Shown piece by piece: positions 835-64,000 of a stretch of 64,000 bases of DNA. The position numbers were made by a program, and so were the translations under genes. Position 1 is the stretch's first letter, and each line of letters opens with the position of its first letter. Origin of the DNA: Candidatus Bathyarchaeota archaeon (GTDB lineage Archaea > Thermoproteota > Bathyarchaeia > Bathyarchaeales > DTEX01); the NCBI GenBank assembly GCA_018396635.1, contig JAGTQE010000004.1, positions 3,797-67,796 on the forward strand. Direction: 5' to 3'. A model generated the notes under the pieces. It made no database searches. It was not told where the DNA came from and was given only the letters and a program-made list of their open reading frames with translations.

Positions 835-969
835 TGGCGGGCCCGCTGGGATTTGAACCCAGGATCTCCGGCTTTCATCAGCGCCCTGATTTTTATGGGC
901 TTTAGAAGGCCGACGCGTTATCCATGCTACGCTTCCCGAATTGGGCTTTAGGCCCAATTTCACGGGCCC
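835..969 (-). tRNA. tRNA-Arg (anticodon UCU) with two introns and a genomically encoded CCA
   Basis: Manual fold of the reverse complement. Acceptor GGGCCCG (969-963) / CGGGCCC (845-839), discriminator G, CCA 837-835. D arm GCGU-AGCAUGGAUA-ACGC. Anticodon stem UCGGC/GCCGG with loop CUUCUA..A (U33, UCU, A37). Variable loop AGAUC. T arm CUGGG-UUCAAAU-CCCAG. Mature length is 75 nt. There is a 28-nt insert after nt 9 and a 29-nt insert at the canonical 37/38 site. Confidence 0.85.
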
Positions 970-30461: not shown

Positions 30462-32159
30462 ATGCCGACAATCGAGGTTGAGCGGGAAGATCTAGAGCTG
30501 CTCTTAGGAATGAAACTGCCCGAAAGCATCGAGGAGATAGATGAGATCCTATCGTTCATAAAGGGAGAAGCGAAGCACATCGATGAGAAAGAAATCCATA
30601 TAGATGTTAAAGATAGCAATCGGGCAGACATATGGGGGGTTGAGGGGATAGCGCGTGCCCTAAAAGGGATACTTGGCATAGAGAGGGGCCTTAAACGCTA
30701 CAGTGTTGTTGGCGGGTCAGGGGTTACAGTTTATGTTGACCCACGCCTAAGAGATATACGGCCATATATCGCTTGCGCGGTCGTTAGGGATGTTAATTTG
30801 AGCGATGCTGCGATACGCCATATAATGCGCTTCCAGGATAAAATGGATCAAACTTATGGTCGTGGTAGGCGGAGGACGTCGATAGGACTATACGATTTTG
30901 ATTTAGTTAAGCCTCCGCTAAGATATACTGTCTCTAAGCCTGATGAGATAAGCTTCGTTCCATTGGGCTTCGAGCAAGAGATGACATTAGCCGAAATACT
31001 TGAGAAGCATCCGAAAGGGATAGAGTATGGGCATATAGTTAGGCAATTTGATGTCTGGCCGATCTTCATAGATTCTAGGGGTAAAGTTCTATCTTTCCCG
31101 CCAATAATTAATTCAAATGATCTGGGTAGGGTTACTATTGAAACGAGGAATATCCTCGTTGAAGTTACCGGCACATCATATAAAACAGTTCTCTACACCC
31201 TAACTAACATTACTCTGGCCCTAGCGGATAGGGGAGGAAAAATATATTCGGCTATAATAAATTATCCGTATGAGGATCTGGGTGAAGTTATAACGCCCAA
31301 CCTTGAAACAGAGAAGATTTGCGTGAACATTAATTATGTGAGGAAGATTATAGGCATGCCGCTAGGCATCGATGAGATAATAGACCTTTTAGAGAGATCT
31401 AGATATGGGGTTTCGGAAATAGTGGGTGATGATATAGTTGTCGAGATACCGTGTTACCGCCCAGATGTAATGCATCCCATAGATGTAGTTGAGGATATAG
31501 CTATAGCGTATGATTTGAATAAGATTAAACCGAGGTGGCCTCAGATATCAACTATCGGCGGCTTATTGCCCGAATCCCGCTTACGTAGTCTCATTAGAGA
31601 GTTGATGATCGGCTTAGGATATCAAGAGGTCTTAACGTTCACCCTAACAAATAAAACAGTCCTATTTGAGAAGATGAATATTCCGCCCGAAAGAGTAATT
31701 GAGGTTGCGAATCCAAAGGTTCTCTCAATGACGTGTCTAAGAAGCTGGCTACTACCGAGCTTAATGGAGCTTCTAAGCCATAATACCCATGTGGAGTATC
31801 CTCAAAGAATCTTTGAGGTGGGCTATTGCGTTTTGCCTGATGAGAAGCAGCCAAATAGGGCTAGGGATGTCGAGAAATTGGCGTGCGTCACAATACATTC
31901 CGAGGCAAGCTTCTCTGAGATTAAGTCAGCTCTCGACGCGCTACTGTCTAATCTCGGTCTTAAGTATAGGTTAGAGGAAACAGTGCATGGGAGTTTTATT
32001 GAGGGGCGTGTTGGGAAGATAATTGTAGGCGGGTTGGAGGAGGTTGGTCTAATAGGTGAGATAAACCCGCAAGTGCTAGAGAACTGGGGACTGGAGAATC
32101 CAGCTGCAGCCTTTGAGATAGACCTCAGCAAAATATGGAAACTTATAAAAATTAAGTGA
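30462..32159 (+). CDS. pheT: Phenylalanine-tRNA ligase beta subunit (archaeal type)
   Basis: MPTIEVEREDLELLLG..., B3/4 and B5 domains. 565 aa. It starts 2 nt after pheS. Confidence 0.9.
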   Translation: MPTIEVEREDLELLLGMKLPESIEEIDEILSFIKGEAKHIDEKEIHIDVKDSNRADIWGVEGIARALKGILGIERGLKRYSVVGGSGVTVYVDPRLRDIRPYIACAVVRDVNLSDAAIRHIMRFQDKMDQTYGRGRRRTSIGLYDFDLVKPPLRYTVSKPDEISFVPLGFEQEMTLAEILEKHPKGIEYGHIVRQFDVWPIFIDSRGKVLSFPPIINSNDLGRVTIETRNILVEVTGTSYKTVLYTLTNITLALADRGGKIYSAIINYPYEDLGEVITPNLETEKICVNINYVRKIIGMPLGIDEIIDLLERSRYGVSEIVGDDIVVEIPCYRPDVMHPIDVVEDIAIAYDLNKIKPRWPQISTIGGLLPESRLRSLIRELMIGLGYQEVLTFTLTNKTVLFEKMNIPPERVIEVANPKVLSMTCLRSWLLPSLMELLSHNTHVEYPQRIFEVGYCVLPDEKQPNRARDVEKLACVTIHSEASFSEIKSALDALLSNLGLKYRLEETVHGSFIEGRVGKIIVGGLEEVGLIGEINPQVLENWGLENPAAAFEIDLSKIWKLIKIK

Positions 32160-32366: not shown

Positions 32367-33206
32367 TTGTCATTTGAAATACAAGATTTAGTAGACATTT
32401 TAAGAATCCTCACTCTTGTAGAGCTTGGTGAGAAACCTATTTTAAAGCGTAGTTTAGAGCGTAAAATATGCCGCATTTGCAAGGGGCGATTTAATATAGA
32501 TGTTGAGGATTTTAATGAGATGTTAAAAAGCATGGTTGAGGAGGGGCTTATATCTGTATCGGGTGATTATGTTAAGTTGACTGATAAAGGGGCTGGGATA
32601 GGTAGAGAGTGGAGAAAATTCCTTTTTAAGGGTGAGCCAATTCTGGAGATCATAGCTGGCATAGCGGATGGAACTGTTGCTAGCCTTACATTGATATTAT
32701 CCTCCCTTATAGCTGGCTTATCCATGAAGATGACGCTGATAGCATCAATATTAAGCCTAATAATAGTTTCAATAACAAACTTCTCAAGTTTTCTTCTTGG
32801 CGGGATAACCGAGAACCTTGCAGATTTAACGACATTGCAGAACTTAATAATTTATAGTTTAAGCGATATCCCAGACAGCGTGGAGAGAACTAAGGCGATT
32901 CATTTAGCCAGGGAATTACTAAATCTGCTGCGTAGGGAGAGGAGTAAAATGAGCATTTTGTCGGCCTTAGCATGCGGGGGAGCAACGTTTGCATCAGCTG
33001 CAGTGCCGCTAGCCATATACCTATCTCTACCCCAGCCGATTGACATGATTCTCTCGCTATCAATAATTCTTGCGATGGCCGGCATATTCCTAGTCTACTA
33101 TCGCGCCCTTAAAATGAGAATACATTGGAAAATAACACTCCTTCAAACAATAACGGTCATAGCTGGAGTGCTAATTATGTCGCTTTTATTGAGCACCAAT
33201 ATTTGA
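32367..33206 (+). CDS. Membrane protein: N-terminal winged-helix-like domain fused to a VIT1/CCC1-like transmembrane domain
   Basis: The N-terminal ~85 aa are soluble (...FNEMLKSMVEEGLISVSGDYVKLTDKG...). They are followed by IIAGIADGTVASLTLILSSLIAG (VIT-family GxxDGxxS motif) and about 5 TM segments. Confidence 0.45.
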   Translation: MSFEIQDLVDILRILTLVELGEKPILKRSLERKICRICKGRFNIDVEDFNEMLKSMVEEGLISVSGDYVKLTDKGAGIGREWRKFLFKGEPILEIIAGIADGTVASLTLILSSLIAGLSMKMTLIASILSLIIVSITNFSSFLLGGITENLADLTTLQNLIIYSLSDIPDSVERTKAIHLARELLNLLRRERSKMSILSALACGGATFASAAVPLAIYLSLPQPIDMILSLSIILAMAGIFLVYYRALKMRIHWKITLLQTITVIAGVLIMSLLLSTNI

Positions 33207-33369
33207 GGGCTTGGTCTTAGAAGGCTCCGCCAAATATAATTTTATGGGTTAATTGGGGAAGCTACAGTCCTTAATAACATTTTAGAGGTTATGAGCAGCA
33301 GAGTGCTGAAGAAAAACTTATTTCTTCCTTTCTCTTTTACATGATTTTGGCGATGATATGAGCCTTAAT

Positions 33370-33579
33370 CCCGCCGGAACCCCTATCTGGGGCCCGCAGA
33401 GACGGACTTGACTGAGAGAGGTGTCGCATCACCTTTCGATGAGGGAGAGTTTACCCAGATGCGGGACACGGCGGGCGTGGGCGCTAAAATTCCACGTGTG
33501 AGAGAGCCCGGCTGAGAGGAGCGAAGCCCGCTCGTCTGTGAGGCTGGGTGTTAGTCACGTGGAACACAAAGCGCCCACG
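33370..33579 (+). ncRNA. GC-rich structured small RNA: two K-turn-containing hairpins, each followed by ACA (double box H/ACA-type guide RNA candidate)
   Basis: No ORF, and a sharp GC rise relative to the flanks. The two units are built identically: lower stem, internal loop, upper stem, U-GA//NNN-GA-G K-turn, apical hairpin. ACA lies at 33466-33468 and 33566-33568. G-U pairs are valid only on the + strand. Full coordinates are in the findings. Confidence 0.55.
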
Positions 33580-33580
33580 A

Positions 33581-33607
33581 AAAATTCTCCTACATTGTGA
33601 GAATTTT
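33581..33607 (+). terminator. AT-rich hairpin (9-bp stem) just 3' of the structured RNA; possible sRNA 3' end or terminator, or a regulatory hairpin of the downstream gene
   Basis: AAAATTCTC (33581-33589) / GAGAATTTT (33599-33607) with loop CTACATTGT, followed by a T-run. Confidence 0.3.
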
Positions 33608-33621
33608 CGGGATCATAAGGC

Positions 33622-33629
33622 TTATAAAA
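33622..33629 (+). promoter_or_regulatory. TATA-box-like element for the glycosidase gene
   Basis: TTATAAAA lies about 34 nt upstream of the TTG start at 33663, consistent with a short-leader or leaderless archaeal mRNA. Confidence 0.4.
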
Positions 33630-33662
33630 TGTCCTTATTTAAGATAGACTGGTGGGATCCAC

Positions 33663-36659
33663 TTGATAAACTATGAATTGTTTAGGGATCCGCCTAAGGA
33701 ATATAGGGGTGTGCCATTCTGGTCCATAAATGATTACCTTGACCCCAAAGAAATAGTCCGCCAAGTCGCCCTGCTGGATGATGGTGGATATGGCGGCGCC
33801 TTCTTTCATGCCAGGGAAGGCTTGGTCACACCATTCTTAGGCGAAGAGTGGTTTAAATCCTTTGAGGCAGCGTTAAATGAGGCAAAAAGACGCGGAATGT
33901 TCATATGGATATATGATGAGCTTTGGTGGCCTTCGGGTTTCGCCGGTGGGATAGTTCCAGCCCTTGGACCGAAATATAGGGCTAAAGCTCTGGCTGCAGT
34001 TATAGGTGAGAGGGCTTATGGCGGCGGCGAGATCATAGCCAACTTTAAGTGCAAGTTGAATGATGAGGGTTTACCATGCGAGTATATGCCTGCTAAGCCG
34101 GGTGAGGAGGGCGGCGGATACCTATATCTATCCTTTATAACCTACACTGCGCCTCCAGGTGAGACATGGTTCAGCGGCATGAGCTATGTCGACCTACTGA
34201 GCGCTGAAGTTGTAAAGAAATTCCTTGAGGTTGCATACGCTCCCTACATCGAGAGATTTAAGGATGATGCTGGTAAGAGCATGCCTGGAGTATTCACTGA
34301 CGAGCCAAATATATCGAGTAGTAGGCCTAGGGTATCCGGGTTTGGCGAGACTGTTCTGGTCCCGCCTAGGGGGCCTAGGTTCCCAGTTTTCGCCTTACCA
34401 TGGACTGATAGGCTTGTTGAGCGCTTTAAGGAGATGAACGGCTACAATATATTGGATAGGCTGCCGGAGCTCCTCTTCAACATCGGAAACTATAGGAGGA
34501 CTAGGTATGACTTCTGGAAGACGGTGACAATGCTCTTCCTAGAAGCTTTTTCAAGGCAGATATATGAGTGGTGTGATAGAAATGGATTAAAGTTCACTGG
34601 CCACTACCTGGCTGAGGATAGCCTCTTAAGCCAGTTGATATGTGGTGGCGCGGTAATGCCCCACTACGAATACCAGCATGTTCCGGGCATAGATCATTTG
34701 GGCATGCATATTTGGGGTAGCCTGCTAACAGCTAAGCAGGTTTCAAGTGTAGCAAATCAGCTTGGGAAGAAAAGAGTTTTATGTGAGACATACGGCTGCA
34801 CAGGCAACTATCCATCCTTCGCAGATAGAAAGTGGATTGGGGATTGGCTATACGCTATGGGCGTTAACCTGCTAAACCACCATCTAGTTCCATACTCTAT
34901 GCGCGGTAGGAGAAAGCGGGATTATGGGCTTAATTTCCATTGGAGCCAACCTTGGTGGAAGTATAACAGGATCATAGAGGATTACTTCGCTAGGCTGAGC
35001 TATATTCTTTCTATAGGGAAGCGTATAGTTAACGTCTTAGTTATACATCCTATTGGGAGCGCTTGGGCGTCATTCTCGCCCCTAAACGTATCTGAGGTCA
35101 AAGAGCTAGATAGTCTTTTGACAACGCTGCTGAGAACTCTGCTCTCACTCCACATAGACTTTGACTTGGGAGATGAAATGTTGATGGCTAAGTATGGCAG
35201 CGTTAAAGATGGGAAGATCTCGATTGGAAGGATGTCCTATGATGTCGTTGTGGTTCCGCCTAGCTTAACTCTAGAAGAAAGCACAGTTAAGATGCTTGAA
35301 GAGTTTGTTAAGGTCGGCGGTAGGCTAATAGCTATATCACCTAAGCCTTCCCTAGTGAGGGGCGAAAAGAGTGAGAGGATCGTTGAAGTGCTGAATAAAG
35401 CCGTAAACGTTGATAGGGTGGATAGGAAGTCGATAAGTAAGGCTTTAGAAGATATTCCTAAACCCATCCTGATAGATGGAGATGAAGAGGGCGAAGTCCT
35501 CTACCACTTAAGGCTAGATGAGGAGAGCGGCAGCATTATACTCTTCCTGGCTAACACTAGTAGGGAGAACTCTCATGATTTAAGGCTTTCCATGCATGGA
35601 TCGTTTAAAGTCGAGGTTTGGGATGCAATAAGCGGAGAGAGGAGAGAGTATCCAGCGGAATTCACCTCAGGAAAAACCTTCTGGCAGATAAGACTCGAAC
35701 CAATCGGCTCAGCAACGTTCATTTTGAGACCAGGCACACCAGTAGCGGAGAAGATGGAGGGATGGATTAAGGTTCGAGAGGAGACCGTGGATGGAGTGTG
35801 GAGGGTCAGGAGAATTAACCCAAACATACTTGTACTAGACTACTGTAGATATAGGGTTAAGGGAGCTTGGAGCGAGCTGATGCCCCTCTGGAGGGCACAT
35901 AACCTTATAGTGCGGAACGGGTTGGGAACAAGGTTCTCGCTGAGATTTGAGTTTGAGTCAGAAATAGATCTTAGAGGTAAAAGAATATATTTGGTTGTCG
36001 AGAGACCTGAATGCTTCAAAATATATGTTAATGGGTCTGAGGTTAAGGCAAGGCCCAGCGGATACTGGATCGATTGGAACTTCCCAATGATAGATATCTC
36101 AGAGCTGGTCAGCAGAGGATTAAACACTATAGAGTTGGAGGGGGTTGTGGGGCTAGAGCCTGAACTTGAGAACATTTACCTGCTCGGCGACTTTGGAGTA
36201 AAAGCAGGAGCTAAGGGCTCCTCAAAGATTGTTGAGGAACCACCCTTTGTTGAATTAGGCGATCTATGCCAGATGGGATATCCATTCTACGCTGGTGAGA
36301 TCGAGTTAAGTAAGAATGTAAATCTGGGTGTACCTGAAGATGCGAGGCTTTCTCTCAGGCTTGAGGGGCTTAACTCATCGCTGGCCATAGTGTATATTAA
36401 TGGTAAAAAGGCTGGGGAAACAATATTGCCACCATACGAGGTTGATGCTACAGGGCTCCTAAAACCAGGAGAAAATGAGATAAGGGTGCTGCTTGTTGGG
36501 ACGCTCAGAAATGCTTTGGGGCCGCTTCACTATAAGGGCGACCCAGCCTTTATAGGTCCAGAAACATTTAGGGATCAGACAAACTGGACTGATGAGTATG
36601 TTCTAAGACCCTTCGGCGTGAAGAACATCAAAATATCAGTGTTTAGGAGGCGCCTTTAA
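33663..36659 (+). CDS. Large (998 aa) putative glycoside hydrolase (N-terminal catalytic barrel-like region, C-terminal beta-sandwich / sugar-binding-like domains)
   Basis: The N-terminus F.DPPKEYRGVPFWSINDYLDPKEIVRQVALLDDGGYGGAFFHAREGL...EEWF resembles the start of large bacterial glycosidases, GH106-like by recollection. The C-terminus ...LRLEGLNSSLAIVYINGKKAGE... resembles GH2-type sugar-binding jelly-rolls. Confidence 0.5.
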   Translation: MINYELFRDPPKEYRGVPFWSINDYLDPKEIVRQVALLDDGGYGGAFFHAREGLVTPFLGEEWFKSFEAALNEAKRRGMFIWIYDELWWPSGFAGGIVPALGPKYRAKALAAVIGERAYGGGEIIANFKCKLNDEGLPCEYMPAKPGEEGGGYLYLSFITYTAPPGETWFSGMSYVDLLSAEVVKKFLEVAYAPYIERFKDDAGKSMPGVFTDEPNISSSRPRVSGFGETVLVPPRGPRFPVFALPWTDRLVERFKEMNGYNILDRLPELLFNIGNYRRTRYDFWKTVTMLFLEAFSRQIYEWCDRNGLKFTGHYLAEDSLLSQLICGGAVMPHYEYQHVPGIDHLGMHIWGSLLTAKQVSSVANQLGKKRVLCETYGCTGNYPSFADRKWIGDWLYAMGVNLLNHHLVPYSMRGRRKRDYGLNFHWSQPWWKYNRIIEDYFARLSYILSIGKRIVNVLVIHPIGSAWASFSPLNVSEVKELDSLLTTLLRTLLSLHIDFDLGDEMLMAKYGSVKDGKISIGRMSYDVVVVPPSLTLEESTVKMLEEFVKVGGRLIAISPKPSLVRGEKSERIVEVLNKAVNVDRVDRKSISKALEDIPKPILIDGDEEGEVLYHLRLDEESGSIILFLANTSRENSHDLRLSMHGSFKVEVWDAISGERREYPAEFTSGKTFWQIRLEPIGSATFILRPGTPVAEKMEGWIKVREETVDGVWRVRRINPNILVLDYCRYRVKGAWSELMPLWRAHNLIVRNGLGTRFSLRFEFESEIDLRGKRIYLVVERPECFKIYVNGSEVKARPSGYWIDWNFPMIDISELVSRGLNTIELEGVVGLEPELENIYLLGDFGVKAGAKGSSKIVEEPPFVELGDLCQMGYPFYAGEIELSKNVNLGVPEDARLSLRLEGLNSSLAIVYINGKKAGETILPPYEVDATGLLKPGENEIRVLLVGTLRNALGPLHYKGDPAFIGPETFRDQTNWTDEYVLRPFGVKNIKISVFRRRL

Positions 36660-63593: not shown

Positions 63594-63735
63594 AAGCAGG
63601 AAAATTGCCATACCTCTCCCCCTCCACAATTTACATCCTTTTTTATTGACGACTTAAGGTCGCTATAGCGCTATTATAAGCTGCGGAGGATAACATTAAG
63701 TTTAGCGTAGCTAAATAGTTTATGTAGTTGGGCTG

Positions 63736-64000
63736 GTGGACAAGCTGTCTGTAGCTGTGGTGACTGGCGGCGCAGGCTTTATCGGCAGCCACCTGGTGGG
63801 TAGCCTCCTCCTAGAGGGTTTTAAGGTCATCGTTCTAGACAACTTTTTCACCGGAAGCTTTGAGAATATTCGCACGTACATGGATAATCCAAGGCTCCAA
63901 ATAATTAAGGGAGACGTCAGGAGAAAGAGGGTTGTAAGAGAGATCCTTAGGGAAGCTGACTACGTCTTTCACCTCGCAGCTATTGCCAGCATCCCCCTAT
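63736..64000 (+). CDS. NAD-dependent sugar-nucleotide epimerase/dehydratase (SDR; UDP-glucuronate decarboxylase / dTDP-glucose dehydratase-like), N-terminal part (3' end outside the window)
   Basis: Manual translation from GTG 63736 gives VDKLSVAVVTGGAGFIGSHLVGSLLLEGFKVIVLDNFFTGSFENI...VFHLAAIASIP. This is a Rossmann GxxGxxG, and DNFFTG is typical of UXS-type enzymes. The frame is open to the window end. Confidence 0.8.
   Translation, partial: MDKLSVAVVTGGAGFIGSHLVGSLLLEGFKVIVLDNFFTGSFENIRTYMDNPRLQIIKGDVRRKRVVREILREADYVFHLAAIASIPL

Follow-up and report, generated by a model that had tools for sequence, protein, structure and literature searches.

Which gene, if any, occupies a long GC-rich gap between two protein-coding regions of an archaeal genome? 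This question is raised by an interval of 456 nucleotides (nt), at 33207-33662 in a 64,000-nt stretch of contig JAGTQE010000004.1 from a Candidatus Bathyarchaeota archaeon (assembly GCA_018396635.1; the whole stretch is hereafter the window, and its first letter is position 1). The interval is located between an open reading frame (ORF) ending at 33206 and one starting at 33663, and its longest ORF is at most 56 amino acids (aa), in agreement with a preliminary description that had seen no credible ORF there. The GC-rich block noticed in the same description spans 33369-33580; no other part of the window with at least 62% GC is as long (the window mean is 44.7% GC). Its edges are the outer edges of two helices, hereafter the clamps, that were proposed to enclose the two halves of an unannotated RNA. 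Each half was drawn as a kink-turn (K-turn) hairpin followed by an ACA trinucleotide. From the analysis reported here, the block is probably a gene for a two-hairpin box H/ACA guide small RNA (sRNA) of a Bathyarchaeia-like archaeon. The RNA represents a new family of H/ACA sRNAs, unusual in its clamped architecture, for which we infer a guide function.

First, the RNA is conserved as a structure. Of 21 related Bathyarchaeia loci, 19 have a homologue just downstream of pheT, the gene for the beta chain of archaeal-type PheRS, and on the same strand. The counts of covariation and invariance given below are based on A1, in which 18 full-length copies are aligned. All the elements quoted in the preliminary description (stems, GA/GA dinucleotides, ACA at 33466-68 and 33566-68, clamps, a mini-hairpin, and a complementary pair of segments at 33361-67/33616-22) are present in the window base for base, and its nine helices were evaluated on A1 against controls in which the 3' partners were slid by 1-3 columns and against 500 shuffles. 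Standard pairs occupy 90.6% of the cells, versus 37-44% with slid partners. Changes on both sides occur at 16 pairs, a number equalled by none of the 500 shuffles, so that the covariation anticipated for syntenic relatives is indeed observed. Hairpin 1 shows it mainly in the apical stem (six of eight pairs) and at the top pair of the lower stem, and hairpin 2 in the upper stem (four of seven pairs) and the lower stem. Without any input structure, RNAalifold returned the same lower, upper and apical stems together with both clamps. Both by covariation and by RNAalifold, each unit has a lower stem, a large internal loop and an upper stem. The GA/GA dinucleotides of the K-turns, both ACA boxes and the strands of the internal loops, or pockets (AGACGG, UUACCCA, UGAGAGA and GUGUUAGU), vary little or not at all, whereas the stems drift, which is the pattern expected of guide RNAs. 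The central proposal of two K-turn hairpins, each with an ACA and each within an outer helix, is therefore borne out by the invariant ACA boxes, the pairing frequency and the RNAalifold structure.

The stability of the fold on the + strand is far above chance (-133.2 kcal/mol, z = -9.4 against dinucleotide shuffles). The - strand also folds well (z = -7.1), as a chance GC-rich palindrome or a functionless repeat remnant would. However, the structure is kept, with compensatory changes and invariant motifs, across loci whose PheRS-beta proteins are just 65-84% identical, and this explanation can be regarded as effectively refuted. The RNA was assigned to the + strand because of invariant G.U pairs (33506/33549, 33404/33452 and 33405/33451) and a conserved upstream promoter, and the strand chosen in the preliminary description is thus retained.

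Do the two hairpins have the dimensions of archaeal H/ACA guides? In all the Pyrococcus guides tested by Toffano-Nioche et al. (PMC4652768), productive folds are described as '10/x/y', in which a 'GA stem' of 10 layers extends from the closing pair of the pocket to the sheared pairs of the K-turn, and the ACA is found 14-15 nt from the pocket-closing pair. Both hairpins fit this ruler after a small re-registration, with 10 layers each and the ACA at 15 nt in unit 1 and 14 nt in unit 2.

In hairpin 1, the lower stem is formed by 33393-33398 and 33460-33465, as indicated by the covariation count and RNAalifold, and its top pair covaries between A-U and U-A (11 versus 6 sequences). The upper or GA stem, the K-turn and the apical stem-loop, which were delimited by conservation and covariation in A1, occupy 33406-33450. 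The K-turn consists of sheared G33414.A33442 and A33415.G33441 with a 3-nt bulge at 33438-40; A33415, G33441 and A33442 are invariant, and G33414 is replaced by A in loci L006, L020 and L021. Above it, 33416-23 pair with 33430-37 in the covarying apical stem, and below it the upper-stem pair 33408/33448 switches between U-A and C-G (9 versus 8 sequences). As first drawn, this hairpin would have 12 layers, with its ACA 13 nt away. When the pocket is taken to include the invariant G.U 'pairs' 33404/52 and 33405/51, 10 layers are obtained from the closing pair A33406-U33450, and nine guide nucleotides plus the lower stem of 6 base pairs (bp) give 15 nt (33451-65) before ACA box 1 at 33466-33468. 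The 5' guide strand, whose boundary follows from the 10-layer rule (PMC4652768), is then GAGACGG at 33399-33405, of which AGACGG is invariant in 18/18 sequences, and the 3' guide strand is UUACCCAGA at 33451-33459, of which UUACCCA is invariant or nearly so. The closing pair itself is A.C or A.G in 6 of the 18 sequences. ACA box 1 is invariant in 18/18; its three nucleotides bulge out where the lower stem gives way to the first clamp. A second conserved tandem G.A/A.G (or A.A) is found at 33410-11 with 33445-46, two pairs below the K-turn; a standard pair is formed there in just one cell among the 18 sequences. The minimum-free-energy alternative for unit 1, in which UCUGGG (33386-91) pairs with CCCAGA (33454-59), was rejected, its 5' partner being inside the variable mini-hairpin.

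Hairpin 2 follows the same plan. Its lower stem (33491-33498 with 33556-33563, from the covariation count) has double changes at two pairs (A-U/G-C and A-U/C-G/G-C). The 5' guide strand UGAGAGA (33499-33505) is invariant in 16/18 sequences, and the 3' guide strand GUUAGU at 33550-33555 carries the invariant GUGUUAGU. The GA stem, K-turn and apical hairpin extend over 33506-33549. Ten layers are counted directly: the invariant closing pair G33506.U33549, then six Watson-Crick pairs, next U33513.G33542, and finally sheared G33514.A33541 and A33515.G33540. The K-turn has its 3-nt bulge at 33537-39, and its GA/GA dinucleotides are invariant. ACA box 2 is part of ACACA at 33564-33568, in a 6-8-nt internal-loop strand, and GGAACAC is invariant in 18/18. 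The copy of the box chosen in the preliminary description, 33566-68, gives a distance of 16 nt. With the copy at 33564-66, the six nucleotides of GUUAGU, seven pairs (33556-62) and A33563 add up to 14 nt.

These dimensions bear on the main rival explanation, according to which the RNA is folded around its K-turns to bind L7Ae, possibly with Cbf5, without guiding pseudouridylation. It would be either a degenerate descendant of an H/ACA RNA, serving as a ribonucleoprotein (RNP) scaffold, chaperone or decoy, or a member of a new K-turn class. The presence of up to three K-turn-type motifs in one molecule agrees with this idea, and so does the possibility that the pocket of hairpin 1 pairs with itself (G33404/5 with U33451/2 or C33454/5). 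On the other hand, both ACA boxes are invariant at the exact ruler distance below K-turns that are 10 layers up, and the pocket strands are more conserved than the stems, as they are in guides.

What surrounds the two hairpins is less usual. Clamp 1 is formed by CCCGCCG (33370-33376) and CGGCGGG (33469-33475); six of its pairs are invariant, and the seventh, innermost pair is G-C, G.U or U.G. Clamp 2 is formed by CGUGGGCG, extended by CU in this window (33476-33485), and AGCGCCCACG (33570-33579); eight pairs are conserved, the eighth being G-C, U-A or U.G. Both clamps were recovered in the pair count and by RNAalifold, and conservation stops at about 33582, just beyond the second. Since a GC-rich outer helix closes each unit, the ACA becomes a bulge or a strand of an internal loop. 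The boxes are thereby put inside junctions, a further feature that would suit a K-turn RNA with no guide function. The 3' strand of clamp 1 ends at 33475 and the 5' strand of clamp 2 begins at 33476, with no linker, so the abutting clamps could stack as a single rod, about 15-17 bp long, that has a guide hairpin at each end. Thermostability, protection of the RNA ends and a fixed geometry of the two sites are possible roles of the clamps. The mini-hairpin (33380-33392) in the three-way junction of the first unit is longer in L006, L020 and L021 and missing in L012 and L014; its varying length and sequence and its absence from two loci mark it as dispensable.

Is this an independent gene, or part of a messenger? 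The constant synteny just 3' of pheT, on the same strand, would fit a cis-acting element, either a 3' untranslated region, terminator or stabiliser of pheT or the 5' leader of the downstream gene. However, the RNA has its own promoter-like sequence. A motif resembling a TFB recognition element and TATA box (BRE/TATA) is found at 33312-33324 on the + strand (AAAAACTTATTTC in the window; AAAGTTTATnT in most relatives). In 19 loci it is located at a constant distance, about 46-55 nt upstream of the CCCGCC of the first clamp. It is retained even in loci with an ORF inserted after pheT (among them the window, L006 and L021) and thus moves with the RNA. Moreover, the sequence downstream of the RNA is unconserved, and no riboswitch or leader family was matched in the Rfam searches. 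The cis-acting explanation therefore seems quite improbable. Under the H/ACA guide interpretation, the locus is likely an RNA gene of about 235 nt with its own promoter, extending from about 33348 to about 33582 on the + strand.

The ends of this gene differ from those first proposed. The usual spacing between an archaeal TATA box and the transcription start is about 26 nt, and from the position of the promoter a start at about 33347-33350 is predicted. Conservation in A1 spans about 33350 to about 33582, with none 3' of the latter. The 5' limit of the preliminary description, 33370, accordingly had to be extended upstream, and the predicted RNA, starting at about 33348, would carry at its very 5' end a motif resembling a kink-loop (K-loop), GCGAUGA-UAU-GAGC (33350-33363). 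The GCGAUGA...GAGC-type motif is present in 16 of the 18 aligned homologues, a few of which have single-base changes, and its loop varies in length (3-6 nt); in L012 and L014, AAUGAUGA...UGAU stands in its place. The proposed layout has G-C and C-G closing pairs, a GAU bulge, tandem G.A/A.G pairs and the 3-6-nt loop. Because the 2-bp stem is invariant and so out of reach of covariation, the putative K-loop is assigned from the sequence pattern. An additional enclosing helix (33361-67/33616-22), which would have made an RNA of about 260 nt, was abandoned; its complementarity is confined to this window, and the 3' partner falls in unconserved sequence. In the window, the conserved RNA is followed directly by an inverted repeat, AAAAUUCUC...GAGAAUUUU, and a U-run (33583-33612, + strand), an arrangement peculiar to the window, which may be a terminator hairpin with oligo-U. 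In the relatives, plain T-runs are found at that place, 5-30 nt downstream of the RNA.

Does the RNA belong to a known family? At Rfam gathering thresholds, a tRNA at 845-935 is the sole match in the whole window and nothing is matched at the RNA, consistent with the earlier description of an unannotated RNA. Assignments to RNase P, signal recognition particle RNA or box C/D RNAs were discarded, as no such family appeared at threshold. A box C/D sRNA was considered from the sequence as well and rejected, with a C-like GCGAUGA and a local GAGC at the 5' end only and no 3' CUGA. The sole C/D match in Rfam, snoZ194 just upstream, is at chance level (E = 6.4, 17 bits against a gathering score of 50). 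In a permissive search of 501 nt, the best match was HgcG/Pab40 (RF00064; 14.7 bits, E = 0.067) and the rest was noise. In this match, hairpin 2 aligns to motif 3 of Pab40, which guides Psi2016 in the loop of helix 69 of Pyrococcus abyssi 23S ribosomal RNA (rRNA) (PMC2377435). That the only similarity in Rfam is to an H/ACA RNA is again contrary to expectation for a K-turn RNA of another kind.

The resemblance to Pyrococcus Pab40/Pf7 (RF00064) extends to several H/ACA hairpins in one transcript, K-turns 10 layers up and ACA 14-15 nt below, and hairpin 2 shares with Pab40 motif 3 a G.U closing pair and a U-GUUA 3' pocket. However, the 5' guide is different, and the Rfam consensus has no helices enclosing the hairpins, whereas the RNA studied here has clamps and a junction mini-hairpin. 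Pab21, an H/ACA sRNA with an extra C/D-box motif, is a precedent for an appended motif of the K-turn type; here, in contrast, the 5' hairpin is a minimal K-loop-like element of 14 nt in which no box D or guide region is evident.

Where, then, would the two hairpins act? Targets were searched in 120 archaeal 16S-containing metagenomic loci, under strict canonical rules by which pairing must be contiguous from the junction, the target must have an unpaired UN and at least 9 bp are formed. One locus, L134, carries both 16S and 23S rRNA and is presumably Bathyarchaeia (MCG)-like, judging from its match to primer sequences of that group (at most 2 mismatches). In the strict scan of L134, hairpin 2 has one match only, 5'-CUGAC-UC-UCUU-3' (5+4 bp), in the 3' strand of the helix 69 stem of 23S rRNA, and the same match is found in three other TACK-type rRNAs (four in all). 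Counted from the loop uridine (E. coli 1915 = yeast 2258), the stem uridine corresponds to position 1921 in E. coli, Psi2264 in yeast and Psi3747 in human. In yeast, Psi2264 is guided by snR3, and Psi3747 is its human counterpart (PMC2794176). Helix 69 was also the best site for hairpin 2 in an energy scan of intermolecular-only, three-way-junction pairing. For hairpin 1, the best site in that scan is a peptidyl-transferase-centre stretch of 23S rRNA, E. coli 2579-2594 (CUGGGU-UUAGA-CCGUC). The complementarity to rRNA that the preliminary description suggested searching for was thus obtained for hairpin 2, as one canonical helix 69 match, and was not obtained for hairpin 1. The strands of the hairpin 2 pocket (33499-33505 and 33550-33554) also complement 12 contiguous nucleotides of helix 69 with no gap (CUGAC-UCUCUUA, E. 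coli 1916-1927; L134 and others). This gapless register, which leaves no unpaired U, arises from the CUCUCU/GAGAGA repeats, and several registers may be allowed.

Other searches gave no candidate. Strict and relaxed bipartite scans of the 120 rRNA loci yielded no recurrent canonical site for unit 1, and no mRNA or tRNA target was found in scans of the window and related loci. A recurrent 6+2-bp match of unit 1 to 'GGGUAG-UC-CC' of 16S rRNA (about E. coli U804) was rejected as too weak; by counting, it is not the position of yeast Psi999. When a plasmid collection was searched with an archaeal 16S 3'-end sequence, bacterial replicons only were returned.

Several observations weigh against an H/ACA guide. 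The rRNAs scanned come from other metagenomes and not from this organism. The match of hairpin 2 is just 5+4 bp, for which about 0.2 chance hits are estimated in 5.6 kb. For hairpin 1, whose target pattern is 5'-CUGGGUAA-UN-CCGUCU-3', no register gives a canonical target, whether in 16S/23S rRNA or in the 267 kb that the window and related loci make up. The sites of best energy leave 5 or 0 target nucleotides unpaired instead of 2, and shuffled guides equal their energies in 6/30 (unit 1) and 4/30 (unit 2) trials. The score against RF00064, 14.7 bits, is far from the gathering score of 77, which places the RNA outside that family. Furthermore, the clamps are hardly tested by covariation because their cores are near-invariant and only the innermost pairs vary, compatibly, and a helix directly 3' of ACA box 1 might hinder binding of the PUA domain of Cbf5. 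Since shuffled guides reach the same energies, helix 69 is a plausible but not a statistically secured assignment for hairpin 2, and hairpin 1 would be an orphan or would use non-canonical pairing. The lack of a canonical target for hairpin 1 and energies no better than those of shuffled guides are also what would be expected of a K-turn RNA that guides nothing. Taken with the evidence on its other side, we consider that explanation unlikely, though it is the strongest competitor. The architecture is that of the H/ACA-type guide named in the preliminary description, while its guiding activity is read from sequence and structure.

If the RNA is an H/ACA guide, it would work as follows. L7Ae would bind both K-turns, with the 5' K-loop-like motif as a possible third site, and Cbf5-Nop10-Gar1 would assemble on the lower stems and the ACA boxes. 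The invariant pocket strands would pair with the substrate RNA, in which one uridine would be isomerised. Hairpin 2 would most plausibly position the uridine in the 3' strand of the helix 69 stem of 23S rRNA (E. coli 1921, yeast Psi2264 equivalent). The two outer helices could be stacked as one rod with a guide unit at either end.

A bolder proposal is that the RNA forms a distinct architectural class, defined by clamped hairpins, a stacked rigid rod, ACA boxes as bulges and a 5' K-loop cap. It would then be a particle of fixed geometry, comparable to the eukaryotic two-hairpin small nucleolar RNP (snoRNP), that makes a eukaryote-type pseudouridine in the helix 69 stem, and hairpin 1 would act non-canonically, for instance with just one of its guide strands or with a large loop in the substrate, as at the peptidyl-transferase-centre stretch E. 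coli 2579-2594. This proposal is put forward tentatively, as rather unlikely in its entirety.

Comparison with other systems shows which parts of the design are shared. Like eukaryotic box H/ACA small nucleolar RNAs (snoRNAs) such as yeast snR3, the RNA is bipartite, with one box internal between helices, and the candidate site of hairpin 2 in helix 69 is the snR3 site (25S Psi2264). Eukaryotic H/ACA snoRNAs, however, have no K-turn and no enclosing helices, and their H box (ANANNA) is in a single-stranded hinge. Among archaea, Haloferax volcanii reportedly has a double-hairpin H/ACA RNA, sR-h45, that guides Psi1940 and Psi1942 of 23S rRNA. Compared by architecture, sR-h45 is likewise a two-hairpin archaeal H/ACA RNA aimed at helix 69, whereas here one hairpin alone is complementary to helix 69. 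We know of no clamps in sR-h45 and of no archaeal H/ACA RNA with a closing helix around each hairpin. In our literature search, no H/ACA RNAs were found described in Bathyarchaeia. Psi1940, Psi1942 and Psi2605 of Haloferax volcanii are reported to depend on Cbf5 (PMC5029457).

In Sulfolobus islandicus, helix 69 is a target of Cbf5 and guides at the equivalents of E. coli 1917 and yeast 2266, and a 6-bp duplex suffices (PMC11077068). The H/ACA and atypical H/ACA-like sRNAs of Sulfolobus islandicus and Pyrobaculum (sR148, sR435 and others) are therefore relevant comparisons, as these organisms belong to the same TACK/Thermoproteota lineage, helix 69 is modified and duplexes of about 6 bp work. 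The RNA described here differs from the atypical sRNAs by the added outer helix. Its candidate site in hairpin 2, the 2264 equivalent, also differs from the positions modified in Sulfolobus helix 69 (equivalents of E. coli 1917 and yeast 2266) and, being a stem uridine (E. coli 1921 equivalent), from the loop uridine addressed by Pab40 motif 3.

The remaining features of the window concern its host and its other genes. The archaeal-type PheRS beta chain (pheT, 30462-32159) indicates an archaeal host, and the nearest relatives of this protein, at 65-84% identity, are from Bathyarchaeia metagenome-assembled genomes of hot springs and sediments. The tRNA gene at 845-935 (- strand; 30 bits in Rfam, missed by ARAGORN) has a 31-nt intron in the anticodon arm, and an intron-containing tRNA fits an archaeal host. 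Between pheT and the RNA there is a + strand ORF of 279 aa (32367-33206) with a weak winged-helix match, HTH_45, under the Pfam cutoff. This ORF seems to be an insertion because in most relatives the RNA is found about 60-70 nt after the pheT stop; about 700 nt are likewise inserted in L006 and L021. Downstream of the RNA, a gene at 33663-36659 (+ strand) encodes a protein of 998 aa with a GH106 alpha-L-rhamnosidase-like domain and has no relation to the RNA. Another GC-rich island, at 63727-63821, was considered as an RNA and rejected, as a coding sequence begins there, marked by a Rossmann GxGxxG motif (VTGGAGFIGSHL). The ORF, probably for an NAD-dependent epimerase or dehydratase, extends past the end of the window.

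What does the finding mean for these archaea? A well-supported H/ACA family, found at 19 loci and missed by Rfam, is added to a major uncultured archaeal lineage, and its clamped design is not seen in the guides of Pyrococcus, Pyrobaculum or Sulfolobus. At its core, the gene stays of an ordinary kind, a modification guide RNA. If Cbf5 does read an ACA that has helices on both sides, H/ACA RNAs would have to be predicted by looser rules, and a natural rigid two-hairpin particle would become available for comparison with eukaryotic snoRNPs. If the helix 69 stem is indeed the target, a modification site of the eukaryotic type would be extended into Thermoproteota-related archaea.

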